A stretch of 29,159 bases of DNA, from NCBI GenBank assembly GCA_050256835.1, contig JBLMVT010000012.1, positions 1-29,159 on the forward strand. The letters run 5' to 3'. This document shows positions 1 through 19,763 of this stretch, in pieces (position 1 is the stretch's first letter; each line of letters begins with the position of its first letter). This DNA is from Betaproteobacteria bacterium (GTDB taxonomy: Bacteria; Pseudomonadota; Gammaproteobacteria; Burkholderiales; Burkholderiaceae_C). The notes under the pieces were generated by a model that did no database searches, was not told where the DNA came from, and worked only from the letters and a program-made list of their open reading frames with translations. Both the position numbers and the translations under genes were made by a program.

Positions 1-936
1 CGCGTGCGCATCACGGTGCAGCTGATCGACGCCGAGACCAACCGCCACCTCTGGGCCGAGCGCTACGACCGCGAGCTGGCCGACATCTTCGCGATCCAGG
101 ACGAGGTCACGCAGGCGATCGTCGCCACCCTGCCCGGGCGCGTCGAGGCCGCCTCGCGCGACCGCGCTGCGCGCAAGACGCCCGACAGCCTGGCCGCCTG
201 GGAATGGGTGCTCAACGCCAAGACGCTGCACCACCGCAGCCAGCCCGAGGCCAACGCGCAGGCGCAGGCGATGCTCGAGCGCGCGCTCGCGCTCGACCCG
301 AGCTACGCCCACGCGCACGCCTGGAAGGCCTGCGTGCTCGGCCAGACCTGGGTCAACGGCTGGTGCGCCGACCGCGAGGCGACGCAGGCGCTGATCGCCG
401 CCGAGCTGCAGCGCGCGCTGGCGCTCGACAACAACGACAGCGACACGCACCGCATCCTGGCCGCGGTGCACCTGATCCGCAACCAGCACGACCGCGCGCT
501 CTACCACCAGCAGCGCGCGCTCGAGCTGAACCCGAACGACGACCTGATCGTCGTGCAGCAGGGCGAGATGCTGACCTGGATCGGCGAGCCCGAGGCCGGC
601 ATCGAGTGGATCAGGAAGGCGATGCGGCTCAACCCGTACCACCCCGAGCGCTTCTGGAGCCACCTCGGGCGCGCCTACTTCGTCGCCCGCCGCTACGCCG
701 AGGCGATCGACGCCTTCGTCCGCATCACCGCGCCGGAGCCGACGCACCACGCCTTCCTCGCCGCCTGCCATGCGCGGCTCGGCGACGCCGCCGCCGTGCC
801 GCCGCACCGCGCGGCGGTGCTCGCCGCCGCGCCGCAGTACACCGTCGAGGCCTGCCTCGCGACGCAGTACTACCGCCGCGACGAGGACCGCGAGCACCAC
901 CGCCAGAGCCTGCTGGCGGCCGGCTTCGCGCCCTGA
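1..936 (+). CDS. 5'-truncated protein: TolB-like module followed by TPR repeats (C-terminal half typical of adenylate-cyclase/TPR or wHTH/TPR proteins)
   Basis: Frame is open from base 1. RITVQLIDAETNRHLWAERYDRELADIFAIQDEV is the characteristic TolB-like segment, followed by TPR-like helices (ERALALDPSYAHAHA, RALELNPND, KAMRLNPY). The N-terminal domain lies outside the window, so cyclase identity cannot be confirmed. Confidence 0.8.
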   Translation, partial: RVRITVQLIDAETNRHLWAERYDRELADIFAIQDEVTQAIVATLPGRVEAASRDRAARKTPDSLAAWEWVLNAKTLHHRSQPEANAQAQAMLERALALDPSYAHAHAWKACVLGQTWVNGWCADREATQALIAAELQRALALDNNDSDTHRILAAVHLIRNQHDRALYHQQRALELNPNDDLIVVQQGEMLTWIGEPEAGIEWIRKAMRLNPYHPERFWSHLGRAYFVARRYAEAIDAFVRITAPEPTHHAFLAACHARLGDAAAVPPHRAAVLAAAPQYTVEACLATQYYRRDEDREHHRQSLLAAGFAP

Positions 937-946
937 GCGACGCGGC

Positions 947-2044
947 TCAGCCGCGCAGCCGGTACGCCGGCAGCGGCCGGTGGAAGCCCCTGAGCCGAAG
1001 CTCGCCGGCGGACTCGGCGGCGAAGTCGCCTTCCAGCTCGGCCATGACGCGCTGCGCCACCAGCACCTCGCCGGCGCGCGCCTCGCCGCACAGGCGCGCC
1101 GCGAGGTTGGTGACGGTGCCGATGGCGCCGTAGTCGATGCGCCCCGGAAAGCCGATGCCGCCGAGCGTGGCGAAGCCCTGCGCGATACCGACGCCCATGC
1201 CGAGGTCGTAGCCGCGCTTGCTCCAGCCGGCGGCCAGCCGCGCCACCTCGCGCTGCATCGCCAGCGCCATGCGCGCGGCACGCTGCGCCGGGTCGGGCAC
1301 CGGCTGCGGGTCGTTGAAGAAGACCATGATGCCGTCGCCCGTGAAGCGTTCCAGCGTGCCTTCGTGATCGAGGATCAGGCGCCCCATCGCGGCGTGGTAC
1401 TCGGCCAGCACGCCCATCACCTCCTCCGGGTCGGCGGTCTCGGTGAACGCGGTGAAGCCGCGCAGATCCAGGAAGACGACGGTGATCTCGCGGCGGTGGC
1501 TCTTCAGAGGATCGTCGGCGCCGCCGCCGACGATCGCCTCGGCGAGCTGCGGCGAGAAGAAGCGCTTGAGCCGCCCGACGCGCTCGAGCTCGCGCACGCC
1601 CTCGGCCACGCGCTGCTCGAGCGAACGGTTCCATTCGGCCAGCTCGGCCTTCTGCCGCTGCACCTCGTCGTACAGCGTCTTGATGCGCAGCAGCGAGCGC
1701 ACCCTGGCCAGCAACTCGGCCTGGTTGACCGGCTTGGTGAGGAAGTCGTCGGCGCCGGCCTCCAGCCCCTTGACGCGCTCGGCCGCAGGGTCGAGCGCGG
1801 TGACGAGCACGATCGGCAGCATGGCATGGCGCGGGTCGGCGCGCACCGCCTGGCAGACCTCGTAGCCGCTCATGCCCGGCATCATCACGTCGAGCAGGAC
1901 CAGGTCGGGCGCCTCGGCCTCGATCGCTGCCAGCGCCTCGGCGCCCGATGCCGCGGTGACCGTCGCGTAGCCCTTCACGCCGAGCACGTCGGCGAGCAGC
2001 TTGACGTTCTTGGCGACGTCGTCGACGACGAGGATCTTTTGCAC
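947..2044 (-). CDS. Response regulator receiver domain fused to a class III (adenylate/guanylate) cyclase domain
   Basis: REC: ILVVDD, DLVLLDVMMP, DDFLTKP. A coiled-coil linker leads to the cyclase: VFLDLRGFT (metal Asp), RFTGDG (second Asp), TNLAARL (Asn/Arg). GTG start lies 1 nt after the upstream stop. Confidence 0.92.
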   Translation of the reverse strand: MQKILVVDDVAKNVKLLADVLGVKGYATVTAASGAEALAAIEAEAPDLVLLDVMMPGMSGYEVCQAVRADPRHAMLPIVLVTALDPAAERVKGLEAGADDFLTKPVNQAELLARVRSLLRIKTLYDEVQRQKAELAEWNRSLEQRVAEGVRELERVGRLKRFFSPQLAEAIVGGGADDPLKSHRREITVVFLDLRGFTAFTETADPEEVMGVLAEYHAAMGRLILDHEGTLERFTGDGIMVFFNDPQPVPDPAQRAARMALAMQREVARLAAGWSKRGYDLGMGVGIAQGFATLGGIGFPGRIDYGAIGTVTNLAARLCGEARAGEVLVAQRVMAELEGDFAAESAGELRLRGFHRPLPAYRLRG

Positions 2045-2045
2045 G

Positions 2046-2426
2046 TCAGAGCGGCCTGCGGCCGCCGGCGAGGAAGCGCTGCACCGTGTCGAGGAAGGCC
2101 TTCAGCGCGATCGGCTTGGTGACGTAGGCGTCGAAGCCCGAGGCGACGATCTTCTGCTGCTCGTCGGGCATCACCGAGGCCGACACGGCGAGCACCGGCG
2201 TGGCCGCCAGGGCCGCGTCCTTGCGGATCGTGGCCAGCGCCGTGATGCCATCGATGTCGGGCAGCTGGATGTCCATCAGGATCAGGTCGGGGCGGCGCTC
2301 CGACGCCAGCCGCACGCCCTCCCCGCCGGTCACGGCCTCGATCGTGTCGTGACCCTGGTGGCGCAGGATGTCGCGCACCAGCTTCATGTTCTTTTCGTTG
2401 TCCTCGACGATCAGGATGGTGCTCAT
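2046..2426 (-). CDS. Single-domain response regulator (DivK/CheY-like), 126 aa
   Basis: MSTILIVEDNEKN...PDLILMDIQLPDIDG...DAYVTKP. ATG at 2426 overlaps the kinase stop (ATGA). The longer 2046..2795 ORF extension overlaps the kinase and is not credible. Confidence 0.93.
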   Translation of the reverse strand: MSTILIVEDNEKNMKLVRDILRHQGHDTIEAVTGGEGVRLASERRPDLILMDIQLPDIDGITALATIRKDAALAATPVLAVSASVMPDEQQKIVASGFDAYVTKPIALKAFLDTVQRFLAGGRRPL

Positions 2427-5400
2427 GGGGTGGCTCCCACCGCCTCCGGCGTGCGCTCGGGAAGGATAAAGGCAAACGTCGATCCCCGGCCCGGCGCGCT
2501 CTCGACGCGGATCGTTCCGCCGTGCAACTCGACGAAGCGCCGGGCCAGTGACAGCCCGAGGCCGGTGCCCTCGCTCTTGCGCAGGTAGTCGCCGCTGGCC
2601 TGGCGGAATTCCTCGAACACGAGAGCCTGCTGGTCGGGCGCGATGCCGACGCCGGTGTCGATCACGGCGATCTCGACCGCGCCGTTGCTGCGCCGCGCGC
2701 GCAACGTGACGCGGCCGCCGGGCGGAGTGAACTTGACCGCGTTCGACAGCAGGTTGATGACGATCTGCTTGACCTTGCGCGCGTCGGCCACCCACTCGTC
2801 GACCCCCTCGCCCACGTCGAGCGTCAGCATCAGGCCGTGGCGGGTGGCGCGCTCGCGCACCAGCGTCATCGAGTTGTCGAGCAGCAGCCCGAGGTCGAAC
2901 GACGACAGCTCCAGCTCCATGCGGCCGGCCTCGATCTTCGACAGGTCGAGGATGTCGTTGATGAGCGAGAGCAGGTGCTGCCCGGAGGAGTGGATGTCGC
3001 GCAGGTATTCGAGCTGCTTCTCGTTGACCTCGCCGAACATCTGCTCGGCCAGCACCTCGGAAAAGCCGATGATGGCGTTCAGCGGCGTTCGCAGCTCGTG
3101 GCTCATGTTGGCGAGGAACTCGCTCTTGTGCTTGTTGGCCGTCTCGAGTTCACGGCTCTTGGCCTGGATCTCCTCGAACAGCCGCGCGTTCTGGATCGCG
3201 ATCACCGCCTGGTCGGCGAAGGTCCTGAGCAGCGCGATCTCCTTGTCCGAGAACGGGCCGGCGGTGCTGCGTGCCACGCTGATGACGCCGATGCCGCGGC
3301 CCTCCCACAGCAGCGGCGCGAGGATCAGCGAGCGGGTCCCGACGGTGCTCGCGGCACGCCTGACGTAGGGCGGCACGTCGGCGCCATGCTCGACGTCCGG
3401 GTAGTGCATGACGCGCCGCTCCAGGATGGCCGAGCCCGAACCCGACTCGCGCGACAGCGGCACGGGGAAGCTGCGGGCGAAGTCCTCGCGGTTCGCCGCC
3501 GGGCCGTGCTGCGCCACGAGGTGGATCAGGCCATCCTCGCCGACCAGGTTGATCGCCATGTGCAGGCCGCCGAACAGCCGCTCGCAGCTGGCCAGGATCG
3601 CCTCGAACACCGGCGTCGCGTCGGCCACCGAGCCGCTGATCACCTGCAGGATCTGCGCGGTGGCAGTCTGCTGCTCGAGCGCCTCGCGTGTCTCGTTGAA
3701 CAGGCGCACGTTCTCGATCGCAATCACCGCTTGGTCGGCGAAGGTCTGCACCAAAGCGATCTCCGCTGGAGTGAACGGGCGCACCTGCTTGCGCAGCAGG
3801 CCGATCGTGCCGATGGCGGCGCCTTCACGCATCATCGGTACGGCCAGCACGGTGCGAAAGCCGTGGCGACGCTGCACCTCGCGCGCGTCGGGATACTGCG
3901 TGTCGACGAGCGGCTCAATGTCCTCGATGTGCACCACGCGGCGCTCGACGAAGGCGCGCCCGACGGTGGAGGTCGCTCGCATCGGCAGCAGCTCGCCGCG
4001 GCCGCGCTGCGTGCCGTCGGCGCTTCGGTAGCCGGTCATCGCGCGCAGCCGGTCGCCGTCGGGCAGCCAGATGCGGCTGCCCTCGGCGCGGCACAGCGCC
4101 GCCGAACGCTGCGCCACCGCGTCGAGCACCGGCTGCACGTCCGTGGGCGACTCGCTGATCACGCGCAGGATGTCGCTCGTCGCCGTCTGCCGCTCGAGCG
4201 CCTCCTTGGTCTCGTTGAACAGGCGCACGTTCTCGATCGCGATCACGGCTTGGTCGGCGAAGGTCTGCAGCAGTCGCACCAGTTTGTCGGCGAACGGCCC
4301 CGGCTCCTCGCGACAGACCGCTATCGAGCCGATGACCTGGCCCTCGCGCAGCATCGGCACCGCCATATTGCTGCGGAAGCCGGCGCGCCGCGTCGCATCC
4401 TTGAGCGCGTAGTCCGGGTCGGCGAGCACGTCGGCGATCTGCACCGGCCGGCGCTCGAGGATCGCGCGCGCGGTGATGGCGCCGCGGCCGACCTTCATCG
4501 GGAACGCTTGGCGCATGGCCTCGGCCGCCTGGGCCGTCACGCCACGGTAGGCCACCAGCTGGACCTGGTCCCCTTCGAGCCGCGCCACGCCGCCGATGTT
4601 CGCGCCGCTCAGCGCCATCGCGTGCTCGGCGATCGCGTCGAACACCGGCTGCACGTCGGTCGGCGACTCGCTGATGACTTTGAGGATGTCGGCCAGCGCG
4701 GTCTGCTGCTCGAGCGCCTCGCGCGTCTCGTTGAACAGGCGCACGTTCTCGATCGCGATCACAGCCTGGTCGGCGAAGGTCTGCAGCAGCCGCACCAGCT
4801 TGTCGGGGAACAGGCCGGGCGCCTCGCGGCAGACCCCGAGCGACCCGATCACCTGGCCCTCGCGCAGCAGCGGGACGGCCATGTTGGCGCGATAGCCGGC
4901 GCTGCTGGCTGCCCCCTTCAGGCCGTAGTCCGCGTCCGCCAGCACGTCGGGAATCTGCACCGGCGCGCGCTCCTGGATCGCCCTGACCAGCGTCGCGCGG
5001 CGCCCGAGCGGCATCGGATAGGCGGCGCGCATCGTCTCGGCGGCCTCGGGCGACGTGCCGCGGAAGGCGACCAGGTGCACCGACTCGCCGTCGAAGCGGG
5101 CGACGGCGCCGATCATCGCCCCGCACAGCGTCATGGCGCGCTCGGCGATGGCGTCGAACACCGGCTGCACGTCGGTCGGCGACTGGCTGATGACCTTGAG
5201 CACCTCGGCGGCGGCGGTCTGCTGCTCGAGCGCCTCGCGCGTCTCGTTGAACAGGCGCACGTTCTCGATCGCGATCACCGCCTGGTCGGCGAAGGTCCCC
5301 GCCAGCGCGATCTCTGGGTCGGTGAAGGCGCCGCGCGCGACGCGCAGCACGGCAATGCCGAACTCGGCGCGCCCGCCGCGCACCATCGGCACGAACAACC

Positions 5401-7372
5401 CCGATCCGTAGCCCAGCGCGACCGCCAGCTCGCGCATGCGCGGCAACTGGGGGATGGCCGCCTCGGTGTCGGCAATGTTGAGCACGCGCGCATCGAGCAT
5501 GCACGTGCCGATGGCGCTGCCGCGGTCGAGCGGCCAGTGCGCGAGCACCTTCCCGGCCGCCTCGTCGAGCGCCTCGTCGCGCGCCACGGCGAGCGGCTCG
5601 ATCAGGCCGTCGCGGGCGCGCACCAGCACGGCAGTGCGGCCCTGGAACAGGCGCTGGCAGGCGTGCACGATGGCCTCGAACACCGGCTGGGTGTCGGTCG
5701 GCGAGCTGCTGATGACGCGCAGGATCTCGGCGATCGCAGTCTGCTTGTCGAGCGCCTCGCGCGTCTCGTTGAGCAGCCGCACGTTCTCGATCGCTATCAC
5801 CGCCTGGTCGGCGAAGGTCTGCAGCAGCTCGATCTGCCGCGGCGGCGTCGGCCCCGGGTCCGGCCACGCCAGCACGATGGCGCCGACCGGCACGCCGTCC
5901 TTCAGCAGCGGCGCGCCGATCATGCGGCGCCACCGGCCGAGGTGCGCGTTCGTCTGGTCGTAGTCGGGGTCGGAGAAGGTGTCCTCCTCGACCTGCAGCC
6001 GGCCCGATAGGATGACGCGGCCGCTGATCATCTGGCGGCTCGGCGGGCCGGGGTAGAAGCGGCGCGCGTCCTCGATCGCCTCGGCCGTCCAGTTGCGAAC
6101 CGCCACCTGGTGCACCAGCTCGCCGTCGTAGCGGAAGATCGCCGACAGCGGCGTGCCGAACAGCCGCGTTGCGCTGTCGAGGATCGCCTCGAACACCGGC
6201 GCGACGTCGGTTGTCGACCGGCTGATGACCCGCAGCACCTCGCTGATCGCGGTCTGCTGGGCGAGCGACTCGCTCAGCTCGGCGGTGCGCTGCTCGACCT
6301 TGCGCTCGAGCCCGGCGTACGACTCCTGCAGCGCCGCGGCCATGCGGTTGAACTGCTCGGCCAGGCCCTCCAGTTCGTCGCCGGTCTTGACCACGATGCG
6401 CCGCTCGAGCTCGCCGGCGCCCAGGCGCACCGCGCCTTCCTGGATGCTGCGGATCGGCCGCACCAGCGCGCGCGCGAGGAAGAAGCTCGCCACCATGGAC
6501 AGCAGCAGTCCCGCGGCGAGCAGCAGGCCCAGCCGCTCGACCGAGGCGTACAGCGGCGCCAGCGCCTCGGCGCGCGGCGACTCGACGAACACCTGCCAGC
6601 CGAGCGTGCGGATCGGCGCGTGTGCGGCAAACACCGGCTGGCCGGCGAGGTCGTGCGCCTCCGGCGCAGCCTCCGCGCCCAGCGCCGCCACCTGCGGCAG
6701 CGAACGCATGTCGATCTTCTTCAGCACCAGGCTGATGTCGGGGTGGGCGATCAGCGTTCCGGTGTCGTCGACCACGTAGGCCAGACCCTTCTTGCCGACG
6801 TGGATGCGCGACACCACCTCCCACACGAACTTGAGGTTGACCTCGGCCGCCGTGACGCCGCCGGCACCACCGGCCGGCCGCGCGATGGTGAGGTAGGGCT
6901 CGGTTTCCTTGCGGAAATACACCGGGCCGGTCCAGGTCTTGCCGGATTTCGCGACGAGGAAGCGAGGCTCCTTCGACACGTCGGTGCCGGCGCTGATCGT
7001 GTCCATCGCCAGCCGCGACACGCGCAGCTGCTCGTGGCCGGTGGCGTCGATCCAGGCCACCTCGGTGATCGCCGGCACCTGGCGCAGCAGCTTGAGGTAT
7101 TCGATGCGCCGGCCCTCGACCGGGTTGCCGCCGCCGGCATCGAGCGTCGGCAGCGCCGTCCAGCCGAGCTGCTGCTCGATGCCCTGCACGTACTGCTCGA
7201 TGCGCGTCGCCGCACCCTCGGCCTTCTCGACCTGCAGCGCGACCAGGTGCTGGCGTGTCTCGCGCCACGAGAAATACAGGCTGACCGCGCTGGCCGCCAG
7301 CAGCATGCCGCCAACCAGCGCGATGATCAGCAGCGCGTACTTGGGGAATAGGCGCCAGCGGCGGGCGGTCAT
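2423..7372 (-). CDS. Membrane sensor histidine kinase, 1649 aa: TM - periplasmic Cache-like domain - TM - HAMP - six GAF domains - HisKA - HATPase
   Basis: Start MTARRWRLFPKYALL overlaps the upstream stop (ATGA). Two hydrophobic segments; HAMP (LVRPIRSIQEGA...GDELEGLAEQFNRMA); six repeats ending FADQAVIAI(E/Q)N; H-box FLANMSHELRTPLNAIIG; N-box NLLSNAVKFT; G boxes DTGVGI and GTGLGL. Confidence 0.93.
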   Translation of the reverse strand: MTARRWRLFPKYALLIIALVGGMLLAASAVSLYFSWRETRQHLVALQVEKAEGAATRIEQYVQGIEQQLGWTALPTLDAGGGNPVEGRRIEYLKLLRQVPAITEVAWIDATGHEQLRVSRLAMDTISAGTDVSKEPRFLVAKSGKTWTGPVYFRKETEPYLTIARPAGGAGGVTAAEVNLKFVWEVVSRIHVGKKGLAYVVDDTGTLIAHPDISLVLKKIDMRSLPQVAALGAEAAPEAHDLAGQPVFAAHAPIRTLGWQVFVESPRAEALAPLYASVERLGLLLAAGLLLSMVASFFLARALVRPIRSIQEGAVRLGAGELERRIVVKTGDELEGLAEQFNRMAAALQESYAGLERKVEQRTAELSESLAQQTAISEVLRVISRSTTDVAPVFEAILDSATRLFGTPLSAIFRYDGELVHQVAVRNWTAEAIEDARRFYPGPPSRQMISGRVILSGRLQVEEDTFSDPDYDQTNAHLGRWRRMIGAPLLKDGVPVGAIVLAWPDPGPTPPRQIELLQTFADQAVIAIENVRLLNETREALDKQTAIAEILRVISSSPTDTQPVFEAIVHACQRLFQGRTAVLVRARDGLIEPLAVARDEALDEAAGKVLAHWPLDRGSAIGTCMLDARVLNIADTEAAIPQLPRMRELAVALGYGSGLFVPMVRGGRAEFGIAVLRVARGAFTDPEIALAGTFADQAVIAIENVRLFNETREALEQQTAAAEVLKVISQSPTDVQPVFDAIAERAMTLCGAMIGAVARFDGESVHLVAFRGTSPEAAETMRAAYPMPLGRRATLVRAIQERAPVQIPDVLADADYGLKGAASSAGYRANMAVPLLREGQVIGSLGVCREAPGLFPDKLVRLLQTFADQAVIAIENVRLFNETREALEQQTALADILKVISESPTDVQPVFDAIAEHAMALSGANIGGVARLEGDQVQLVAYRGVTAQAAEAMRQAFPMKVGRGAITARAILERRPVQIADVLADPDYALKDATRRAGFRSNMAVPMLREGQVIGSIAVCREEPGPFADKLVRLLQTFADQAVIAIENVRLFNETKEALERQTATSDILRVISESPTDVQPVLDAVAQRSAALCRAEGSRIWLPDGDRLRAMTGYRSADGTQRGRGELLPMRATSTVGRAFVERRVVHIEDIEPLVDTQYPDAREVQRRHGFRTVLAVPMMREGAAIGTIGLLRKQVRPFTPAEIALVQTFADQAVIAIENVRLFNETREALEQQTATAQILQVISGSVADATPVFEAILASCERLFGGLHMAINLVGEDGLIHLVAQHGPAANREDFARSFPVPLSRESGSGSAILERRVMHYPDVEHGADVPPYVRRAASTVGTRSLILAPLLWEGRGIGVISVARSTAGPFSDKEIALLRTFADQAVIAIQNARLFEEIQAKSRELETANKHKSEFLANMSHELRTPLNAIIGFSEVLAEQMFGEVNEKQLEYLRDIHSSGQHLLSLINDILDLSKIEAGRMELELSSFDLGLLLDNSMTLVRERATRHGLMLTLDVGEGVDEWVADARKVKQIVINLLSNAVKFTPPGGRVTLRARRSNGAVEIAVIDTGVGIAPDQQALVFEEFRQASGDYLRKSEGTGLGLSLARRFVELHGGTIRVESAPGRGSTFAFILPERTPEAVGATP
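3189..6275 (-). repeat. Six tandem GAF-coding repeats, period 516-522 bp
   Basis: The TTCT(C/G)GATCGC core (antisense of AI(E/Q)N) recurs at 5784, 5262, 4746, 4230, 3711 and 3189, giving spacings of 522, 516, 516, 519 and 522 bp. Confidence 0.9.
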
Positions 7373-8339
7373 TCGATCACTTGGTCGGCGCCAAGCAGCA
7401 CCTGCTCGGCGACGTGCAGACCCTGGGCCCGCCCAGCCTTCAGGTTGACGACGAACTCGAACTTCGCTGGCTGCTGGACCGGCAGTTCCGCCGGACTCGC
7501 GCCGCGCAAAATGCGATCGACATAAACGGCCGCGCGCCGATACTGGTCGCGGAGGTCGACGGCGTACGACATCAGCCCACCGGCTTGCGTGAAGACACTG
7601 TGCGGATACATGGCCGGCCGTCGCAGCGCGGCGATCGCCTCGACGATGCCGCGGCGCGCAACGAAGTAGAGCGTGTCGTCCTGCACGAACCACGCATCTT
7701 CGGCCGCATGGGCCATGATGGCCGGCCGCAGTTGCTCCTCGGCGCCTGCCCGGGCAAAGGTGAGCCGCAAACCAAGCGACTGTGCCGCCCGCTCGGTCTC
7801 GGGCTGCGCTTCCGGTCGGCCCGACAGCACCGCGACGCGCGCGATGCCGGGGAATGCCTCCTTCAGCAGCTGCATGCGCTTGCCGATCAGCTCGTCGCTC
7901 AGCGTCGCGAAGCCAGTGAGGTTGCCGCCCGGTCGCGCCAGGCTCGCCACCAACCCCATGCCGACCGGCCTAGGGACCGCGGCAAACACGACGGGGATCG
8001 ATGACGTCGCCGCCCTGGCCGCCGCCGCCGCGTTGCCTCCTGACGCCAGGATCACATCGGGACGCTGAGCGACGATTGCCGAGGCCAATGCTGGAAAGCG
8101 CTCCACGCGACCCTCGGCGAAGCGACGCTCGAGCACGAGATCGCGGCCCTCGACCCAGCCTTGAGCGCCCAGCTCGCCCCAGAAAGCGTCCCAGATCGCC
8201 TGCGTCTCGGGCGAGTCGGGACGCGAATTGCCCAGCCAGCCGATGCGCGGCAAGGTGCCGCGCTCGCGCGCCCACACCGGCTGCAATGCGAACAAAGCGC
8301 TGGCTGCGAAGAAGGCACGGCGGGCGGTCATTCGATCAC
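7359..8339. repeat. 22-bp exact direct repeat CGGCGGGCGGTCATTCGATCAC at 7359-7380 and 8318-8339, each spanning a stop/start junction
   Basis: Read directly from the sequence. A shorter third copy (TCATTCGATCAC) starts at 9311. Confidence 0.9.
7369..8331 (-). CDS. ABC-type substrate-binding protein (ABC_sub_bind / Trp-Tyr-like family), copy 1
   Basis: PRIGWL, RFAEG, PDVIL, GMGLVASLARPGGNLTG, GGLMSY, PAELPVQQPAKFEFVVNLK, ADQVIE. Twin-arginine-like N-terminus (ARRAFF). Confidence 0.88.
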   Translation of the reverse strand: MTARRAFFAASALFALQPVWARERGTLPRIGWLGNSRPDSPETQAIWDAFWGELGAQGWVEGRDLVLERRFAEGRVERFPALASAIVAQRPDVILASGGNAAAAARAATSSIPVVFAAVPRPVGMGLVASLARPGGNLTGFATLSDELIGKRMQLLKEAFPGIARVAVLSGRPEAQPETERAAQSLGLRLTFARAGAEEQLRPAIMAHAAEDAWFVQDDTLYFVARRGIVEAIAALRRPAMYPHSVFTQAGGLMSYAVDLRDQYRRAAVYVDRILRGASPAELPVQQPAKFEFVVNLKAGRAQGLHVAEQVLLGADQVIE

Positions 8340-9314
8340 CCGGTCCACGCGCAGCAGGAACGCCGGCGGCAGCGCGATGCCGAGCGCGCCAGCGACCCGC
8401 CGGTTCACGACGAGTTCGAAGCGGTTGGGCTGCTCGACCGGAATGTCCGCCGGCTGCACGCCATTCAGCACCTTGTCGACCAGATGAGCGGAGCGGCGCA
8501 ACTGGTCGTCGAGCGCACCGCCGTAGGCGAACAGTGCGCCGCCCTCGACCGCCTGGCTGCGGGTCGCCACGACCGGCACGCCATGTGTCGAGGCCAGCGC
8601 CGCCAGGTGCGCCGCGAGGTTGCCAGCGAGCGTCGAGCCGGTGAGGACGACGTCGACCTTCTGGGCCAGCAGTCGGGTCAGGGCGGCCTCGGTCTGCGCC
8701 GGATTCGACCCCTCGGCAACGATCATCGTGAAGCCGAGGTCCGGCGCAACCGCCCTGATCGCCGCCAGGTCGAAGTTCGCCCGGGGGTCGCGCCGGTCAC
8801 CGATGTAGCCGATGCGCCGTGCAGCCGGCAGTGCCTCGCGTACCAGATCGAGCCGCTTCGGTCCCAGCGAATCGGCGATCGTGACGATCCCGGTCACGTT
8901 GCCGCCGGGTCGAGCCAGGCTGGCGACGAGTCCGGCGCCGATCGGATCGCTGCCGGTCGCGAACACGATCGGGATCGTCCGCGTGGCGGCGCGCGCAGCA
9001 ACCGCAGCGGACTGCGGCGGCGCATAGATCACCTGCGGCGCGCGCGCGACCAGTTCGGCGGCCGCCCGGGTCAGCACTTCGGCACGGTCGTCGCCATAGG
9101 CTCGGTCGTACTCGATGCTGCCGCCCTCGATCCAGCCGATGCGCCTCATCTCGTCGTAGAACGGTGCCAGCGTCGCTTCCTCCTTCGCGCGCGTGCTGGG
9201 CGCCAGCACGCCGACCTTGCGCACGATCCGGCGGGGGTCCTGAGCCAGCGCGTCGTGGCTGAACGGCTGAATCGTGGCAGCCAGCGCACCGGTGATGATC
9301 CGCCGGCGTTTCAT
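8328..9314 (-). CDS. ABC-type substrate-binding protein (same family), copy 2
   Basis: KVGVL, IPIVF, DPIGAGLVASLARPGGNVTG, PADIPVEQPNRFELVVN, DRVIE. N-terminus MKRRRII followed by a hydrophobic stretch. Confidence 0.88.
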   Translation of the reverse strand: MKRRRIITGALAATIQPFSHDALAQDPRRIVRKVGVLAPSTRAKEEATLAPFYDEMRRIGWIEGGSIEYDRAYGDDRAEVLTRAAAELVARAPQVIYAPPQSAAVAARAATRTIPIVFATGSDPIGAGLVASLARPGGNVTGIVTIADSLGPKRLDLVREALPAARRIGYIGDRRDPRANFDLAAIRAVAPDLGFTMIVAEGSNPAQTEAALTRLLAQKVDVVLTGSTLAGNLAAHLAALASTHGVPVVATRSQAVEGGALFAYGGALDDQLRRSAHLVDKVLNGVQPADIPVEQPNRFELVVNRRVAGALGIALPPAFLLRVDRVIE

Positions 9315-9391
9315 TCGATCACCCTGTCGGGGCGCAGCACGATCGACAGCGGCCCGAAGGGCCTCGCCGGTCGAGTCGCGTCGTCTTGCAT
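9311..9391 (-). pseudogene. 26-codon mini-ORF, probable internally deleted remnant of a fourth substrate-binding-protein gene
   Basis: Manual translation gives MQDDATRPARPFGPLSIVLRPDRVIE*. GGAGG lies 9 nt upstream of the ATG, the C-terminus matches the neighbours (LLRVDRVIE, LSRADEVIE), and its TGA overlaps the ATG of copy 2. Confidence 0.6.
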
Positions 9392-9455
9392 CACATCACC
9401 CCTCCGTGTCAGCGGGCCGGCCGCGCGGCGATTGTCGCCGCACGCAGCCGGACTT

Positions 9456-10478
9456 TCACTCGATGACTTCGTCCGCGCGCGATAGCAGCGTGTCGGGCAG
9501 TGCCAGGTCGAGCGCGCGCGCGGTGCGCAGGTTGACGACCAGCCTCAGGCGCGTCGGCCGCACGATCGGCAGGTCGCCGGCACGCGCCCCGCGCGAGAGC
9601 CGGTCGACGTAGGCCGCGACCTGCTGCCAGGCCTCGTCGAGCCCGACGCCGTAGGCCAGCAGGCCGCCGTCGCGCGCCTCTTCGGGCCATTCCCAGGCCG
9701 TCGGCAGGCGGTGCCGCACCGCCAGCGCGAGGAGCCGCCTGCGGTCGTGCAGGAACGCGGTCGACGCGCCGACCAGCACCGCCTGCACCTGCTCCGAGTC
9801 GAAGGTGTTGAAGACGCGCTCGTAGTCGCCGCGGCCCTCGACCTCGGCCACCGACAGCGCGACGCCCTGCGCCGCCGCCGCACGCTGCGCCCCGGCCACC
9901 TCGGGGCGCAGTGCCGGATCGGCGGGGACGATCAGGCCGAAGCGGGTCGCCTCAGGCAGGGCCTCGCGCAGCAGCGCGAGCCGGCGCGCGGCGAGCCCGG
10001 CACCGCTGCCGACCAGCACGCCGGTGAGGTTGGCGCCCGGCCGCTCGAGGCTCGACACCAGCCCCACCGCAATCGGATCGAAGTCGCCGACCATGACGAT
10101 CGGGATCGTCGTCGTGGCATCGCGCGCCGCCCGTGTCGCCGCGCTGCCGACCGCGACGATGACGTCGACGCGGTGCCGCACCAGCTCGCGCGCCAGCGCA
10201 GGGAGCCGCTCCTCGCGGCCGTCGGCGTGGCGGTTCTCGACGGCGAGGTTGCGCCCCGTGCGGTAGCCCAGCCGGCGCAGGCTGTGCAGCAGCAGCGCCG
10301 CCGAGCGATCGGCCGGCTCGAGCTCCGTCGGCCGCAGCACACCCAGGCGAAGCCGCCTCGCGAACGGCTGCGCACGCGCCGCCGGCGCGAGGAGCAGGCC
10401 GGCGATCCCGACCGCGAAGGCGCGACGCGAAGGAGCTGGGAACGGGCGACCGGCTTCGAGTGCGCGCGGCGGCGTCAT
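9456..10478 (-). CDS. ABC-type substrate-binding protein (same family), copy 3
   Basis: RLGVL, RHADGREERLPALARELV, IPIVM, DPIAVGLVSSLERPGANLTG, GGLLAY, ADEVIE. Tat-like SRRAF signal. The start is chosen at ATG 10478 (MTPPR) and is uncertain. Confidence 0.85.
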   Translation of the reverse strand: MTPPRALEAGRPFPAPSRRAFAVGIAGLLLAPAARAQPFARRLRLGVLRPTELEPADRSAALLLHSLRRLGYRTGRNLAVENRHADGREERLPALARELVRHRVDVIVAVGSAATRAARDATTTIPIVMVGDFDPIAVGLVSSLERPGANLTGVLVGSGAGLAARRLALLREALPEATRFGLIVPADPALRPEVAGAQRAAAAQGVALSVAEVEGRGDYERVFNTFDSEQVQAVLVGASTAFLHDRRRLLALAVRHRLPTAWEWPEEARDGGLLAYGVGLDEAWQQVAAYVDRLSRGARAGDLPIVRPTRLRLVVNLRTARALDLALPDTLLSRADEVIE

Positions 10479-10740
10479 TCGACGACTCTGCCCCCACGTG
10501 TCGGAACCGCCGGCGTCAGCGCCAGCCGGACGGTGGAACCGATCAGCGCCCTGCGGACGATCATGACTCACCCTGCTTCGCATTCGCCCCGAGCCGACGG
10601 ACGGGGCGCCACGTTACGCCGGCGCCGGACGGCGGTCAACGAAGCTGACTCCGGGCTGCGTTCGATTCGCGACCTGCCGCGAAGTGCCTAACATCGGCCC
10701 TTGTCGGCGTCATGCCCTCTCGCTCGCCCAGGAACACCCG

Positions 10741-11433
10741 GTGACCTTCGCAGACCTCATCACCAACGTGCAGGCGCTGATCGCGGCGGAGCTGTCCTCG
10801 CCGCTGGAGATCTTCGCCATCGTCGCGGGCTTCGTCGCCGGCGCGCTGATCGTCGTCAGCTCGTTCGTGCGCACCATGATCCCGCTGCGCTGGCTGGCGG
10901 TGGGCAGCAACGTCGGCTTCGTCCTCTACGGCGCGCTGCATCCATCGATGCCGATGCTGCTGCTGCATGCCATCCTGCTGCCGATCAACATCTTCCGCGC
11001 CCGCGAGATGGGGCGGCTGGCGCGCCGGGTGCGTGCCGCCGCGCGCGCGGCGGACCTGTCGGGCATCTGGCTCAAGCCGTACATGCGCAGCCGCCAATAT
11101 CGTGCCGGCACGGTCCTGTTCCGCAAGGGCGACCGCGCCGATCAGCTCTACTTCCTCGCGGAGGGCCGCATCGAGTTCGTCGAGATCGGCGCGATCATGG
11201 AGCCGGGCCGCATCTTCGGCGAGGTCGCGCTGTTCTCGCCCGAGCGCAAGCGCACGCTGACCGCGCGCTGCGTCGAGAAGTGCAAGGTGCTGTCGATCGA
11301 CGAGGCGAGCGTCGAGCAGCTGTACTTCCAGAACCCGGCGTTCGGCTTCAAGCTGATCGGGCTGGTCGCGGGGCGGCTGTCGGCCGACGTGCGCCGGCTG
11401 GAGGACCGGCTCGCCAACGCGACCTCGGCGTGA
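10741..11433 (+). CDS. Membrane protein with about three N-terminal TM helices and a C-terminal cyclic-nucleotide-binding (CAP/cNMP) domain, no HTH
   Basis: GTG start with AGGA 7 nt upstream. Hydrophobic segments LEIFAIVAGFVAGALIVVSSFV, WLAVGSNVGFVLYGAL and MLLLHAILLPINIF. cNMP motifs LFRKGD, LYFLAEGRI and FGEVALF...RT. Confidence 0.88.
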   Translation: MTFADLITNVQALIAAELSSPLEIFAIVAGFVAGALIVVSSFVRTMIPLRWLAVGSNVGFVLYGALHPSMPMLLLHAILLPINIFRAREMGRLARRVRAAARAADLSGIWLKPYMRSRQYRAGTVLFRKGDRADQLYFLAEGRIEFVEIGAIMEPGRIFGEVALFSPERKRTLTARCVEKCKVLSIDEASVEQLYFQNPAFGFKLIGLVAGRLSADVRRLEDRLANATSA

Positions 11434-11436
11434 GCG

Positions 11437-14400
11437 TCATTGCGGCGGCGACTCCAGCTGCCGCTGCTCGAACAGGTAATCCCCGCCGCCCTGATCGCCG
11501 GCCGCACCGAAGGCGCCGTACTGCGGACGCTGCGGCAGCGCACGGGCGACCGCGAATCGCACGCGCTCGAAGACGTTGCCTCCCGGCTGCCACTTGGACA
11601 GCTGACGCAGGTTGTTCATCAGGTTCCAGGCAAACGGCGAATGCCCGTCCTTGCCCTCGTCGGCCACCGGCTCGTTGCCGCCCGAGGACATCACCACCAC
11701 CGATCTGCGCGACAGCACCTGCTGCGGATCGATCGTGCCGGGGGTCGCGCGAATGCGCTGGCCGACCAGCGAGCCGGAGTAGCAGCTGTCGGAGATCAGC
11801 GCGACCTGCGACGCGTCGAACAGCTTTGTGAGGCGGCCGATGTCGGTGTTCGACAGCCAGGTCTGCGGCCGCTTCGCGTCGCTGTCCGAGAGCAGCCAAT
11901 AGCCCAGGCCGGTGGAATCGATCAGCTGGCCGTGTCCGGCGTAATAGACGACCACCGAATCCTGAGGATCGAGTGCGAGGGCCAGCTGGTTCAGGGCGGC
12001 CACCACCGTCTGCTTGGAGGGGTTCTCGAGCACGATCGACTCGTAGCCCAACTGGGACTCGAAGATGCGGCCGATGGCCTGCGCATCCCCCACGGCGTTC
12101 GACAGCTGCGGAATCTCGGCGTCGGTGTACCGGTTCACGCCGATCACCAGCGCCACCTTGCGCACGATCTGGGGCAGGTTCGCCACCTTGACCCGCGGCG
12201 TGGGCAGATGCAACAGGGCCGCGGGAAGTTCGGCCGCCGCCGGACGGGCCGCGGCCGCAGTGCTGGCCACTGCTGCCGGCGCGGGTGCCGGAGCAGGCGC
12301 CGGTGTCGGTGCAGCGGCCGTCGCGGCGGGCGGCTTTTCGGTCGGCTTGGCGCCACCCGGCGCAGTCAGCGACGGCGCGGCGAGCGTCTTGCCCGGCCTG
12401 GCTGCCTGCATCTCGCGCTTCATGTCGGCCGTGATCAGGCAGGTGCCGCTGGTCAGATCCTGCGGGCTCTGGCAGGCCGGGAGGTCGGCCAGCGTCGGGT
12501 CCTGCTCCAGCTCGTGGATCGAGTCGGAGAAGATGGCCTTCTTGTAGTTCGCGCGCGAGTCCAGCATGCCCTGCAGCGCGCTTGGCGACAGGTCGCTCAG
12601 GCGCACCGGTGCGAAAGCGCCTGCTCCGGTCGATGGCGGCGTGGTGGAGGACGGCGGGCTGGCCACCGGCATCAGGTTCACCAGGCCGGCCTGGGTCGGG
12701 TCGGCGACGGCCAGCGGTGGCGCGACCGCCTGCCGCGCGAGCAGCGGTGCCCCGGTGCTGACCGCGACCGAGTCCTGCGCGGGGCTGATCCCGCTGTAGT
12801 TCAGGGCCGTCGCATTGGCCGGGTCCTGCGCGAAGACGTAGTTGGTGGCGCCCAGCCCGCCACCGAGGATCGGGTAGGCGCCGGGCAGCGATTGCGCCGT
12901 CGCGGTGGTGGTGAAACTCGGGGCACCGGTGGTGGCGCCTTGCAGCGTCTCGCCGCCCACGAACCCGTAGACGGTGCCGGTCAAGGCAGGCAGGGGCGTT
13001 CCTGCGGGCCAGGTCACGGGCGTGGCCAGGTAGTACAGCGTGGCCGGGTCGATGTTCGCCGTCGTCGTGAAGGACGCAGGCAGCACGTAGTTGGCAGCGT
13101 CGGGGCCCGTCAGGCCCAGCCCGGTGATCGCCACCGTCTTGCCGGTGCCCACGTTCGGGTCGCTGAAGCTGGCCGTCGGGCTGCCCGAGACGGCTACCGA
13201 GTCGCTGCCCAGCGGCTTCACGCTCGCCGTGCCGCTGAGCGTGGCCAGCGAGGTTGCGTCGTAGACCTTGTTGTTGGCGCTGAGTCCGCTGACCGCCAAC
13301 GATGCCGGCGTGATGTCGGCGCTGAGACCCGACGCGACGGGGAGGTAGTTGCCCGCGTCGGCGCCAGTGAGACTCAGCGCGCTGATCGAGACGCTCTTGG
13401 CCGTGCCGACGTTCTTGTCCGAGAAGGTCCCCACCGGGGTTCCGGATACGGACACCGAATCGTTGCCCAGCGGCGTCACGCTTGCCGTGCCGCTCAGCGT
13501 GGCCGCCACGGTTGCGTCGTACACCTTGTTGTTGGCCACCAGCCCGCTGACCGCCAGCGACGCCGGCGTGATGTCGGCGCTGAGGCCGCTCGGCTGGAGC
13601 ACGCTGTAGTTGCCCGCATCGGTGCCGCTCAGTGTGAAGCCGCTGACGGTGACGCTCTTGGCGGTGCCCACGTTCTTGTCCGCGAAGCTTGCCGACGGTC
13701 TGCCCGCGACGGCCACCGAGTCGCTGCCGAGCGGCGTCACGCTCGCGATGCCGCTGAGCGTGGCCAGTGTCGTCGTGTCGTAGATCCTGTTGTTGGCACT
13801 GAGGCCGCTGACGGACAGGAACGCCGGCGTGATGGTGCCGGGCGCCGTCAACGTCGGCGCGACGCTGTAGTTGCTGGCCAAGCCTCCGTTGCTGCCGTTC
13901 GTCAGGCCGATGGCAACCGAAAGATCGTACGTGCCCACGTCCTTGACCGGAAACGCGGCGACGCTGGTGACCCCGAGCGTTTCCGAACCCACCAGTCCGC
14001 TCGTCACCGTCGCGACGGGGTGGGCTAGCGTGGTCGCGTCGTACACTTTGTCCAGGCCGGTCACGGCGACGGTCACCGGTGCCTGGGCGATGCTTCCGCG
14101 CAGCAGGTACTGTGGCAGGTAACCGTAGACCGGCTTCTGGTTGGCGTCGACGAACTGCAATGAAAGGCCGTTCAGCGTGACGTCGTTGTTGGTGCCCGCA
14201 TTGGGACTGGCGAAGTCCGCGCCGCTGAAGCTCAGCCCCACGGCCTGGTCCTGGTTCACCCCTGTGGCGGCAACGTTGGTGACCGTGGCCGTCGTCGTGG
14301 CGTCGTAGGTCTTCGTCTGCACGCTGCCGGTGATGGTGGCGAACTCGGGCGTCGAGAACGCCAGGCCGTTGCCGACGTCGCTGGCGATCGCCGTGTCGCC

Positions 14401-17130: not shown

Positions 17131-17215
17131 GGCCTGACACCTCTCGAAGAAGACGCAGTCGCTCGGTCGAGGCGTGCGGCGTCGACCGTCATGCGAGGGA
17201 GCCCGAGTTCTCGAC

Positions 17216-18814
17216 TCATTGGAAGCTGTAGATCAGCTGCAGATGCGCGCGGTTGTCGCCTCTCTCGGTGAGGTTGCCGTTCTTCAGTGCGTGCGCCAGG
17301 TCCAGTCGAAACTGCAGGTTCTGCCAGTCCAGGCGCGTGCCCAGCCCGACAGCGGCCAGCGTGCAGGACGACTGTGCGTCGCGGCAAGGGGTGTTCAGCC
17401 GATTCCAGACCTTGCCGGCATCAACGAAGCCAAGCAGACGCAACGCCGACTTCGGGCTTGCGGTGGCCGGGAGCAGGCTCGGCGAGTACAGCTCCAACGT
17501 GGCGCTGACGCCGCTGTCGCCGGTGATTTCGCGTTCCTCGTAGCCGCGCACGCTGGTCGACCCGGCAATGCTGAACTGCTCGCCATTGACCAGGCCGTCG
17601 TCGGTCCATTGCCCGGCGATGCGCCCGCTGATCTGCCAATGCCGCGGCAAGGCCCGGGCCGCAAAGCCGCCCAAGCGCACCAGGCTGTAGTCGCGCGACG
17701 CGCCTGGACGCGCCGCCTCGTAGTGGGCCGCGTCGGCATGGCTGCCGCCCAGCGCGAGGTTGTGCGTCAAGCCGGCATTGAAGCCGAGAGCCCGTTCGCC
17801 GCCGCGCTGCAGGGTGTAATCCAGCGACAGTGGATTGACCGTCACGCTGGCGCCGGGGCTGCCGCAGGCGCCGGGGGGCAGGCCGGCGATGGTGCAGTCG
17901 TTGTTGTAATCGCGGCGGTCCAGGCCGAGCGACAGTCGGTGGTCGAACTCGCCGATGCGCTCCAGGTGCTTGTTGAGCCGCACGCCCAGCATCTGGCCGC
18001 GGCCGCTGAACTGCAGCGCGCCGGCCGCGGTGGCGGTGGTGCCGTTGTCGACGTCGGAACGCACACCGAAGAAATCGACCGTCATGCCACGCTCATAGAG
18101 TGGAACGTGGTAGCTGGCACTAAAGACGGCCACGGAACTGGGCTTGTCCGGGGATGTCTGCAGCAGAAGCGACAGCACGTGGTCCAAGTCCCACAAGGCG
18201 GCGTTCTGGTACATCAGGCTGGCGCGCAGACGTCCCGTGTTGCTGTTGCCGGTGTTGTCCAGCGCCACCGACCAGCGACGCGCGGGCTGCTCGCTGACGA
18301 CGATGTGGGCCTCAACGTCACCCGGTTGCTGGCCTGCCTCGAGGGACAGCGCCAGCTGTTTGGCGGGGTTCTCGTTAGCCAACTGGATCTCGGTGTCGAT
18401 GCGCCGCACCGGCGGCGTCTTGCCCTCCACCAGCTGCGGCAGGCTGCGGCGAATGTTCGCCTCGCTGAACTGCTGGTTGCCGGAAACGACCACCAGCGCC
18501 AGACGGCCTTCGAGCACGGCGATGGTGACCCGCCCGGGTGTGCCGGACTGCGGCGGCAGGTAGGCCACCACGGCGCCGTAGCCGGCATCACGGTACAGCG
18601 ACTGGACTGCCTGAGCCGCCTGTTTGAGCTCGTCCAGCGTGCGTTCGCCCTTGAATGGCGCCAGGGCGGCAGCCACGGCCTGCGCGGGCAGCAATGTGTT
18701 CCCGGTGACGACAAACTCTTCGACCAGGACGCGCGGTTGCTGCGCCTGGACCTGGATCGCGATGCCCAGGATGAGCCCGCAGGCCAACCGATGAATGATG
18801 CTTCTTGTCGTCAT
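17216..18814 (-). CDS. TpsB outer-membrane transporter (ShlB/FhaC/HecB family), 532 aa
   Basis: Signal peptide MTTRSIIHRLACGLILGIAIQVQA with AGGTG upstream. POTRA segments (FVVTGNTLL, YRDAGY, VLEGRL, SGNQQFS), SVALDNTGNSNTGRLR, the conserved VRGY loop motif (SVRGYEE), FVDAG, and an aromatic C-terminus (LIYSFQ). Directly upstream of tpsA and co-oriented with it. Confidence 0.92.
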   Translation of the reverse strand: MTTRSIIHRLACGLILGIAIQVQAQQPRVLVEEFVVTGNTLLPAQAVAAALAPFKGERTLDELKQAAQAVQSLYRDAGYGAVVAYLPPQSGTPGRVTIAVLEGRLALVVVSGNQQFSEANIRRSLPQLVEGKTPPVRRIDTEIQLANENPAKQLALSLEAGQQPGDVEAHIVVSEQPARRWSVALDNTGNSNTGRLRASLMYQNAALWDLDHVLSLLLQTSPDKPSSVAVFSASYHVPLYERGMTVDFFGVRSDVDNGTTATAAGALQFSGRGQMLGVRLNKHLERIGEFDHRLSLGLDRRDYNNDCTIAGLPPGACGSPGASVTVNPLSLDYTLQRGGERALGFNAGLTHNLALGGSHADAAHYEAARPGASRDYSLVRLGGFAARALPRHWQISGRIAGQWTDDGLVNGEQFSIAGSTSVRGYEEREITGDSGVSATLELYSPSLLPATASPKSALRLLGFVDAGKVWNRLNTPCRDAQSSCTLAAVGLGTRLDWQNLQFRLDLAHALKNGNLTERGDNRAHLQLIYSFQ

Positions 18815-18923
18815 TGATTCACCTACGGAGCGCCGTCGGCATCCGGCCCGAATCCGGCACGCACGAACGATCAGGAATTGGGACCAACAACGGTTGGGTT
18901 CGACAATACCGATGAACCCGCGT

Positions 18924-18938
18924 GCAACGACTCGTTGC
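18924..18938. promoter_or_regulatory. Perfect palindrome GCAACGA-C-TCGTTGC in the tpsB/ompA divergent intergenic region; candidate operator
   Basis: 7-bp inverted arms with a 1-nt centre, seen directly. Function is inferred only. Confidence 0.3.
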
Positions 18939-19190
18939 GGCAAGGACGATCCGCCTAGCCTCGAGCTACTTCCCCACCGAGGCATTGTGCGGGCAAGGCC
19001 ACGCGATCGCGCGATCGGCGCGAAGAAAATGCGCGGACTCGGGCGGCGGATCGATCAGCGGTCGTCCACTCGCGCGCCTGCGCGAGATCGGCTGCACACG
19101 GGAATCGGCATGGAACCAGCCCTGCGTTTGCGTAGTGGCGGAGGCTCGACGGCACGGTGTATTCTTTCGAGCCACATCGAGGGGGATCCC

Positions 19191-19763
19191 ATGAACATCG
19201 GAAAGCAGCATCTCTGCACCTGCCTCGTCGCAGTCGCGCCCTGGATGCTGGGCAGTGCATTGGCGCAGGAGCCGGTGCTCAAGGGCAAACAGGTCACCGA
19301 GTCGGCGCTCATCGACGCGCTGTCGGTCGATGCGCCCGCCGGGGCCGTGCAAGGCGGGACGCGGGGCTTGGTCCTGTCTTCCAAGCATGCGGGTCCATCC
19401 AAGGCCACCAAGGCGGGTCCGGGCAAGGCGTCCTTGCTGATCACGTTCACGGAGGGCTCGGCCCAACTGACGCCCGAATCGATGTCGATTCTGGACACGC
19501 TGGCCAAGGCGCTCGCGTCGGATCAGCTCGCGGGCAACACGTTTCGGGTCGAAGGGCACGCGGATCCGCGCGGCACCGAAGAGGGCAATGTTCGTCTTTC
19601 GCAGGAGCGCGCCGAATCGGTCGTCGACTATCTCGTCAACAAGCACGGCCTCCTGCCGGAGCGCCTCTCGGCAGTGGGCAAGGGTTCGACCGAATTGGCC
19701 AACCCGGACCGGCCAGACGCACCTGAGAACCGCCGCGTGACCATCGTCACCAAGCGCGAATGA
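19191..19763 (+). CDS. Exported OmpA C-terminal-like (peptidoglycan-binding) domain protein, 190 aa
   Basis: GAGGGG upstream of the ATG; signal peptide ending ALA-Q; ITFTEGSAQL, FRVEGHADPRG, NVRLSQERAESV, GKGS, NRRV. Confidence 0.9.
   Translation: MNIGKQHLCTCLVAVAPWMLGSALAQEPVLKGKQVTESALIDALSVDAPAGAVQGGTRGLVLSSKHAGPSKATKAGPGKASLLITFTEGSAQLTPESMSILDTLAKALASDQLAGNTFRVEGHADPRGTEEGNVRLSQERAESVVDYLVNKHGLLPERLSAVGKGSTELANPDRPDAPENRRVTIVTKRE

Follow-up and report, generated by a model that had tools for sequence, protein, structure and literature searches.

The DNA analysed here, referred to as the window, is a stretch of 29,159 nucleotides that makes up the whole of contig C12 (29 kb) of a 3.37-Mb metagenome-assembled genome from the Burkholderiales (78% complete, about 70% G+C). 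On its minus strand we found three genes for solute-binding proteins (SBPs) of the Pfam family PF04392, followed by genes for a membrane histidine kinase with a periplasmic dCache sensor domain, a lone receiver (REC) protein and a response regulator that joins a REC domain to a class III nucleotidyl cyclase (REC-cyclase). This locus is a real, conserved signalling unit, and on balance we think that it encodes a binding-protein-dependent two-component system with a cyclic-nucleotide output, in which the SBPs signal through the kinase. The three SBPs are probably swappable ligand sensors for that one kinase.

Gene order, junctions and domains of the unit

The domain content of the window was assigned by Pfam and the gene junctions were read base by base. 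Both bear out the gene content given in an earlier, preliminary description of this DNA, namely three PF04392 SBPs, a Cache kinase with six GAF domains, a REC protein and a REC-cyclase in one block. The same description presented the SBP array as translationally coupled to the genes downstream. This holds for SBP2/SBP1, SBP1/kinase and kinase/REC, which overlap by ATGA, and for the stop of the lone REC, which is spaced by 1 nt from the GTG of the REC-cyclase, but not for SBP3, which is separated from SBP2 by a 141-nt gap with no overlap. The gap contains a short open reading frame (ORF, 9311-9391) whose TGA overlaps the ATG of SBP2, and this ORF is the deletion relic of a lost fourth SBP copy. 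Furthermore, an identical 22-base string is found at 7359-7380 and at 8318-8339, spanning the SBP1/kinase and SBP2/SBP1 junctions, which gives the kinase and SBP1 the same start, MTARR. Such a conserved VIE-stop/start junction could be a recombination site for the gain and loss of cassettes.

All three SBPs match the PF04392 profile far above its curated Pfam cut-off of 25.9 bits (123.3, 118.0 and 120.4 bits), and SBP1 is similar to two solved relatives (3LKV, E = 1e-24; 3LFT, E = 1e-22). The twin-arginine-like N-termini noted in the preliminary description are genuine and family-wide: the arginine pair is kept in 162/162 and 156/162 full-length relatives, and in 146 of the 162 it is followed by x-hydrophobic-hydrophobic. 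This near-invariant motif points to export of the SBPs by the twin-arginine translocation (Tat) pathway. Neither a permease nor an ABC ATPase gene was found by Pfam among the ORFs of the 29-kb contig, so that the reported lack of transporter genes in the block holds for the contig as a whole.

In the kinase, both the HisKA and the HATPase_c profiles were matched and the H-box motif is present in the translation. The sensor matches dCache_1 with 64 bits against a cut-off of 45. Adjacent GAF units of the window kinase are joined by near-identical linker motifs, which suggests that they arose by recent internal duplication.

Features of the unit and of the two genes that flank it, with positions in the window
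Feature	Position	Strand	Properties
SBP3, PF04392 solute-binding protein, first gene of the unit	9456-10478	-	340 residues from ATG at 10478; Pfam ABC_sub_bind 1.1e-34
Relic ORF	9311-9391	-	26 codons, ends in SBP C-terminal motif (..RVIE-stop); read from sequence
SBP2, PF04392 solute-binding protein	8328-9314	-	328 residues; Pfam ABC_sub_bind 6.2e-34
SBP1, Tat-signal PF04392 solute-binding protein	7369-8331	-	320 residues; Pfam ABC_sub_bind 1.5e-35
Membrane histidine kinase	2423-7372	-	1649 residues: transmembrane segment 1, periplasmic dCache (about residues 37-282), transmembrane segment 2, HAMP, six GAF, HisKA, HATPase_c; Pfam
Lone receiver (REC) protein	2046-2426	-	126 residues; Pfam Response_reg 9.1e-24
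REC + class III nucleotidyl cyclase response regulator	947-2044	-	365 residues, GTG start; Pfam Response_reg 5.8e-29, Guanylate_cyc 1.7e-19
Small membrane protein with cyclic-nucleotide-binding domain, divergent	10684-11433	+	Pfam cNMP_binding 9.3e-18
TPR protein, cut by contig end, convergent	1-936	+	Pfam TPR repeats

Recurrence of the unit in Burkholderiales

Species-representative genomes were scanned with the sensor region of the kinase (residues 2-370), which gave 400 relatives, and the best 80 of these 400 (55-71% identity) were analysed as loci. Almost all come from uncultured Burkholderiales, with labels that include Casimicrobiaceae, Usitatibacter, Rhodoferax, Rubrivivax and Caldimonas, and the SBP-kinase arrangement occurs in many soil and groundwater members of the order. 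A family profile search found 241 PF04392 segments, and PF04392 genes stand beside the kinase in 65 of the 80 loci. They form arrays of 1 to 11 genes, mostly in tandem, on the same strand and directly upstream of the kinase, or downstream of the cyclase in a few loci. When the window proteins were mapped on the loci, the kinase-REC-REC-cyclase core was kept in about 54/80, and the lone REC is kept between the kinase and the REC-cyclase in most. The proposed linkage of SBPs to a Cache kinase, and from there to REC and REC-cyclase, is therefore conserved over dozens of genomes. At the junctions between SBPs, genes overlap by 4 or 1 nt in 77 of 94 cases (82%), indicating that they are translationally coupled.

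Next we examined how the kinase and this clade of SBPs are distributed, using 400 genomes sampled evenly from the order, in which a sensor ortholog was defined by E <= 1e-50 and an SBP clade member by a best E < 1e-70 to the array profile. The sensor ortholog was found in 35 genomes from 21 genera, nearly always as a single copy, and the SBP clade in 46. The clade is present in 33 of the 35 kinase-bearing genomes compared to 13 of the 365 kinase-less ones. Of the two kinase-bearing genomes without it, one has a kinase with an internal stop and the other is 73% complete. A class-level search outside the order found distant dCache domains only.

The arrays are composed of diverged proteins. The window SBPs are 34-36% identical to one another, pairwise comparison of 181 full-length array members gives a median identity of 38%, and the closest relatives of SBP3 (48-51% identity) are in arrays of other genomes. 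More generally, 94% of array members have their closest relative in a different genome, from which it follows that the arrays are sets of old paralogs and not recent duplicates. Recent tandem duplication was accordingly ruled out, the closest relative being in the same locus for only 6% of members. We also ruled out that the kinase-proximal SBP forms a clade of its own, since the nearest neighbours of 20/55 are also proximal where 30% is expected.

The ligands of solved PF04392 relatives are Phe, Trp or Tyr, and the choice among them depends on two positions (PMC6816091). By alignment to 3LKV these positions are H244 and L260 in SBP1. Among array members they rank at the 100th percentile of variability (the most variable column) and at the 90th, and the first of them is H, R and W in the three window SBPs.

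The arrays also carry many SBP fragments, and relics of 25 C-terminal residues were found just before the kinase in L007, L009, L027, L071 and L078. A gene for an AAA_14/DUF4143 ATPase lies in or beside the arrays of several genomes (L007:8749-9915, L009:8546-9712, L108:3915-5204), and in L007 and L009 this insertion splits an SBP, whose C-terminal relic is left before the kinase. Fragments of this kind, including the one in the window, together with the identical 22-bp junction on both sides of SBP1 and the inserted ATPase genes, would be expected if the arrays were expanding and decaying cassettes that recombine at conserved junctions and have no functional link to the kinase. We consider this explanation very improbable, because the array members are old, intact paralogs with orthologs across genomes, because the short overlaps that couple them are kept at 82% of junctions, and because linkage to one kinase family recurs in at least 21 genera.

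Downstream of the sensor, the most variable part of the kinase is its GAF chain: the lengths of kinase orthologs fall in steps of about 172 residues that correspond to 0-8 GAF units, one unit being commonest, and the six units of the window kinase are at the high end. The output proteins keep the residues required of them. Phosphotransfer positions D8, D9, D52 and K104 of the REC-cyclase are conserved in 53-55 of 55 orthologs, and the lone REC keeps the equivalent residues as read from its sequence. The same degree of conservation (53-55 of 55) was found in the cyclase domain for the metal-binding aspartates D193 and D237 and the transition-state residues N313 and R317. Position 233 is Arg in 39 and His in 15 of the 55 orthologs and never Lys or Glu, and position 306 is Gly, Ser, Ala or Thr, a combination that fits neither the Lys/Asp(Thr) pair for ATP nor the Glu/Cys(Gly) pair for GTP. 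Because these substrate positions are non-canonical, the nucleotide product is not predictable from sequence.

The cyclic-nucleotide-binding membrane protein, which is indeed encoded divergently at one end of the block, had been proposed as the effector of the pathway, a role that the comparison does not support. A homolog is linked in 5/80 loci, at varied positions, and in G674 the distance to the kinase is 4 kb. Three of five near-complete kinase-bearing genomes (G418, G645 and G712) gave no match to it, which rules it out as an obligatory partner; a full-length ortholog is present in one of the five and a homolog also in one kinase-less genome. The protein is an occasional accessory at best, and not a core part of the unit.

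Modelled docking on the kinase and competing readings

The AlphaFold model of kinase residues 1-369 (predicted local distance difference test, pLDDT, 83.6) has a long stalk helix and two alpha/beta modules. According to Foldseek it is closest to the ligand-binding dCache domains of PscC, mmHK1S and PctA-C (template modelling score about 0.7) and not to LuxQ. Invariant charged runs in the periplasmic domain were visible in an alignment of 65 kinases before any model was made. We predicted the complex of SBP1 (residues 22-320) with the periplasmic domain (residues 37-282) in three runs, using our own alignments. The interface score ipSAE (interaction prediction score from aligned errors) was 0.69, 0.70 and 0.77 (median 0.70), at least 93% of contacts were common to the runs and the pLDDT of the partners was at least 87. 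Two replacements of the partner by unrelated proteins and one replacement of the sensor scored 0.00 each. In calibration, 58 of 80 solved complexes and 2 of 110 mismatched pairs attained the ipSAE mark, a comparison that is rough here since our own alignments were used. No solved SBP-sensor complex resembling either chain by sequence was detected.

The modelled contact on the kinase consists of K94, R97, S119-D124, R154-E158, N179, K181 and D212-L217, which, from the secondary structure of the sensor model, we place on the membrane-distal module and where the proximal module begins. These residues are nearly invariant, and much better conserved than other positions of the domain (mean 0.93 vs 0.72, Mann-Whitney p = 7e-7). 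On the SBP side, the predicted contact is made by S130-R133, K151, the 282-287 loop and 314-316, and it is likewise better conserved than the remainder (0.70 vs 0.52, p = 3e-4). The suggestion that an SBP sits on the periplasmic domain of the kinase has thus gained a model, with controls, that places SBP1 at invariant kinase residues; the model supports binding but does not show it. Furthermore, the combination of hypervariable pocket positions with a conserved docking face fits the part of the preliminary description in which the SBPs were called interchangeable adaptors.

Accordingly, we propose the following mechanism for a two-component system with SBPs as inputs. The PF04392 SBPs would be exported folded through the Tat pathway, and each would bind a different small ligand in its diverged pocket. 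All of them would dock by a shared conserved face on one invariant charged patch of the kinase dCache domain (including K94, R97, S119-D124, R154-E158, N179, K181 and D212). Docking would alter kinase activity via the HAMP domain and the GAF chain, and the kinase would then phosphorylate both the lone receiver and the receiver-cyclase, so that periplasmic ligand occupancy becomes cyclic nucleotide. Under this hypothesis the array is a variable set of input modules for one constant receiver, with related genomes having 0 to 11 copies.

Several observations weigh against this reading. The three window SBPs lie in the lower quartile of the scores of their own family profile, and the binding of SBP to kinase rests on the predicted complex, a type of model that can wrongly place chains together. 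In 15 of the 80 kinase loci there is no SBP nearby; some of these have short flanks, and where the flanks are long the upstream genes are unrelated enzymes. These last two points, as well as the standard dCache fold of the sensor, the nearest solved relatives of which are direct binders of small ligands, would agree with SBPs that are ordinary uptake proteins sharing an operon with a kinase they never contact, the dCache domain binding a small molecule by itself. We regard this as unlikely. The output is a cyclase and not a DNA-binding regulator, so autoregulation of an operon is not the obvious reading; the invariant charged residues of the kinase match the modelled contact and not only a pocket; the docking controls scored 0.00; and the presence of the kinase tracks that of the SBP clade genome-wide.

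Also weighing against our main reading, 13 of the 46 clade-bearing genomes in the sample have no kinase, some of them with arrays of 4-5 SBPs, a pattern that is unchanged when the unpublished G697 is left out. In five of these 13 genomes the sensor profile gave matches to the HAMP region only, and the arrays inspected in the group have unrelated genes around them; for example, L105 and L108 (from G761 and G634) have 4-5 tandem SBPs of the same clade among unrelated genes and no dCache sensor homolog. Gene content therefore indicates that the dependence is one-sided, in that the kinase appears to need the SBP clade and the clade does not appear to need the kinase. Moreover, the SBP docking residues (K151, the DLPxEQ loop and RAD) are conserved to the same degree away from this kinase, both in 14 unlinked orphans of kinase-bearing genomes and in 14 SBPs of genomes that lack it, indicating that the face did not evolve only for this kinase. 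From these alignments, the docking face probably serves another partner besides the kinase. The claim that the SBPs act as adaptors rather than in transport is for this reason not supported in its second half.

It is possible, and we hold this tentatively, that the primary partner of the SBP clade is elsewhere, either an importer or another membrane receptor using the same face, and that the kinase evolved to read that face, which would make the SBPs transport or other components as well as sensors. Beyond the conservation just described and the near absence of the kinase without the clade (33/35 genomes having both), this reading is favoured by the 15-35 PF04392 genes that genomes carry, most of which are scattered among unrelated genes. 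A dual role like that of maltose-binding protein with Tar fits the data well.

On the other hand, no candidate for such a partner was found. The genome of the window has four PF04392 genes, three in the window and one on contig C280, whose neighbours there are an NCS1 permease and a GntR regulator and where ABC parts were not found. Its 39 matches to PF02653 permeases were rejected as the cognate transporter, since almost all are paired Liv-type genes on other contigs. This search covers a genome at 78% completeness, so a distant transporter may have escaped it, which also counts against SBPs devoted to signalling. In G003, 0/18 PF04392 genes have a PF02653 permease within 10 kb. Genome G001 has one lone PF02653 permease with an ABC ATPase, next to a multi-MlaD protein (L085:8649-11432) and 2.5 kb from an orphan SBP; this pair was rejected as well, since orthologs of the permease occur in 315/401 sampled genomes of the order and do not track the SBP clade, and no such ortholog was found in the 78%-complete genome of the window. 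Finally, no recurring partner family was seen in 65 flanking ORFs beside scattered orphan SBPs of G001 and G003.

We are correspondingly less confident that the SBPs do nothing besides signalling than that they signal through the kinase. In its strongest form the proposal would be a plug-in chemosensory array: one invariant docking patch reading up to 11 Tat-exported SBPs with hypervariable pockets, whose cassettes are exchanged by recombination at stop/start junctions, with a product that is perhaps neither cAMP nor cGMP and with SBPs that are dedicated sensors and have no role in transport. We offer this full version only as a speculative possibility, one we would rather doubt than expect.

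Known sensing systems and the rest of the contig

About a dozen cases of sensing with the help of a binding protein have been described, each with a single such protein. A close counterpart of our model is autoinducer-2 sensing in Vibrio harveyi, where LuxP, a type I SBP encoded beside the kinase LuxQ, binds side-on to a periplasmic domain that is two-module and PAS/Cache-like, and thereby controls kinase activity (PMC8050422). As in LuxP-LuxQ, the contact predicted here extends over the membrane-distal module and onto the top of the proximal one. The two systems differ in several respects: no sequence similarity to LuxP or LuxQ was detected; LuxP belongs to Peripla_BP_4 and the window SBPs to PF04392; LuxPQ has one dedicated SBP whereas this type of system has 1-11 diverged paralogs; and LuxQ is a hybrid kinase in a phosphorelay to a transcription factor, whereas the window kinase stands beside a lone REC and a REC-cyclase.

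In a second group (MBP-Tar, RBP/GBP-Trg, ChvE-VirA, BctC-BctE and CBP-ChiS) the receptor reads an SBP that is shared with a second partner, and Trg reads more than one SBP (PMC8050422). Such sharing of an SBP matches the clade-wide conservation of the docking face observed here. The other partner of those SBPs is however a known transporter, with which their genes are found, while the SBPs described here have no linked transporter and are coupled to the kinase. AgtS/AruS-type kinases of Pseudomonas aeruginosa are encoded next to sbp genes and have been proposed to be activated by ligand-loaded SBPs (PMC11113362); those are single SBPs of other families, with DNA-binding response regulators.

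Within PF04392 itself, TrpX, SP1069, VC_1101 and CD0873 (PDB 3LFT, 3LKV, 6HNI) are lipoprotein or Sec-type parts of ABC importers that bind Trp, Phe or Tyr (PMC6816091, PMC9382623). The window SBPs share their Pfam family and fold, but have Tat signals and no linked permease, carry H, R and W at the equivalent of Ala-246 of VC_1101, and display surface residues specific to their clade, for instance K151 in place of the Gln of the solved proteins. For the output, the closest solved relative of the catalytic domain is CyaB of Pseudomonas aeruginosa (3r5g, E = 6e-31), with which it shares both metal-binding aspartates, the Asn and the Arg. In comparison with CyaB and other class III cyclases, the window cyclase and its orthologs would be regulated by an N-terminal receiver and have Arg or His instead of the adenine-specifying Lys.

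Of the 13 SBP families that a 2021 review records as stimulating receptors, none is PF04392 (PMC8050422), and our searches of the literature accessible to us (PF04392, COG2984, SBP arrays with kinases) found no description of a system made of an SBP array, a kinase and a cyclase. What is new compared to known binding-protein sensing is the PF04392 family, the many diverged inputs, the coupling to a kinase with no linked transporter and the receiver-cyclase output. If the proposal is true, it adds PF04392 to the receptor-stimulating SBP families and provides a role for some of the many orphan PF04392 genes of Burkholderiales. It would also mean that one receptor is wired to many diverged SBPs, a natural test of how a constant docking face with variable pockets widens the range of ligands. 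The system furthermore points to a class of receiver-regulated cyclases with non-canonical substrate residues.

The remaining genes of the contig encode a two-partner-secretion pair with a caspase-tailed fibre, OmpA, HrpA, ArgA, an iron-trafficking protein, a PAS-GGDEF-EAL protein and DnaG. The convergent gene at the other end of the block, previously called TolB/TPR, does have TPR repeats, but Pfam found no TolB domain in this truncated gene. The PAS-GGDEF-EAL protein (26016-27848) is a second-messenger enzyme with no evident tie to the SBP-kinase unit. The frame of the HrpA helicase (19906-23838, minus strand) has one in-frame stop at about 21895-21897, at a position where a Glu (..AAELVET..) would be expected in HrpA; the interrupted hrpA is either a pseudogene or an assembly error. 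Between this gene and the unit, the region 11437-19763 holds the TpsB/TpsA pair, whose TpsA fibre ends in a caspase (Peptidase_C14) domain, together with the OmpA-family gene.

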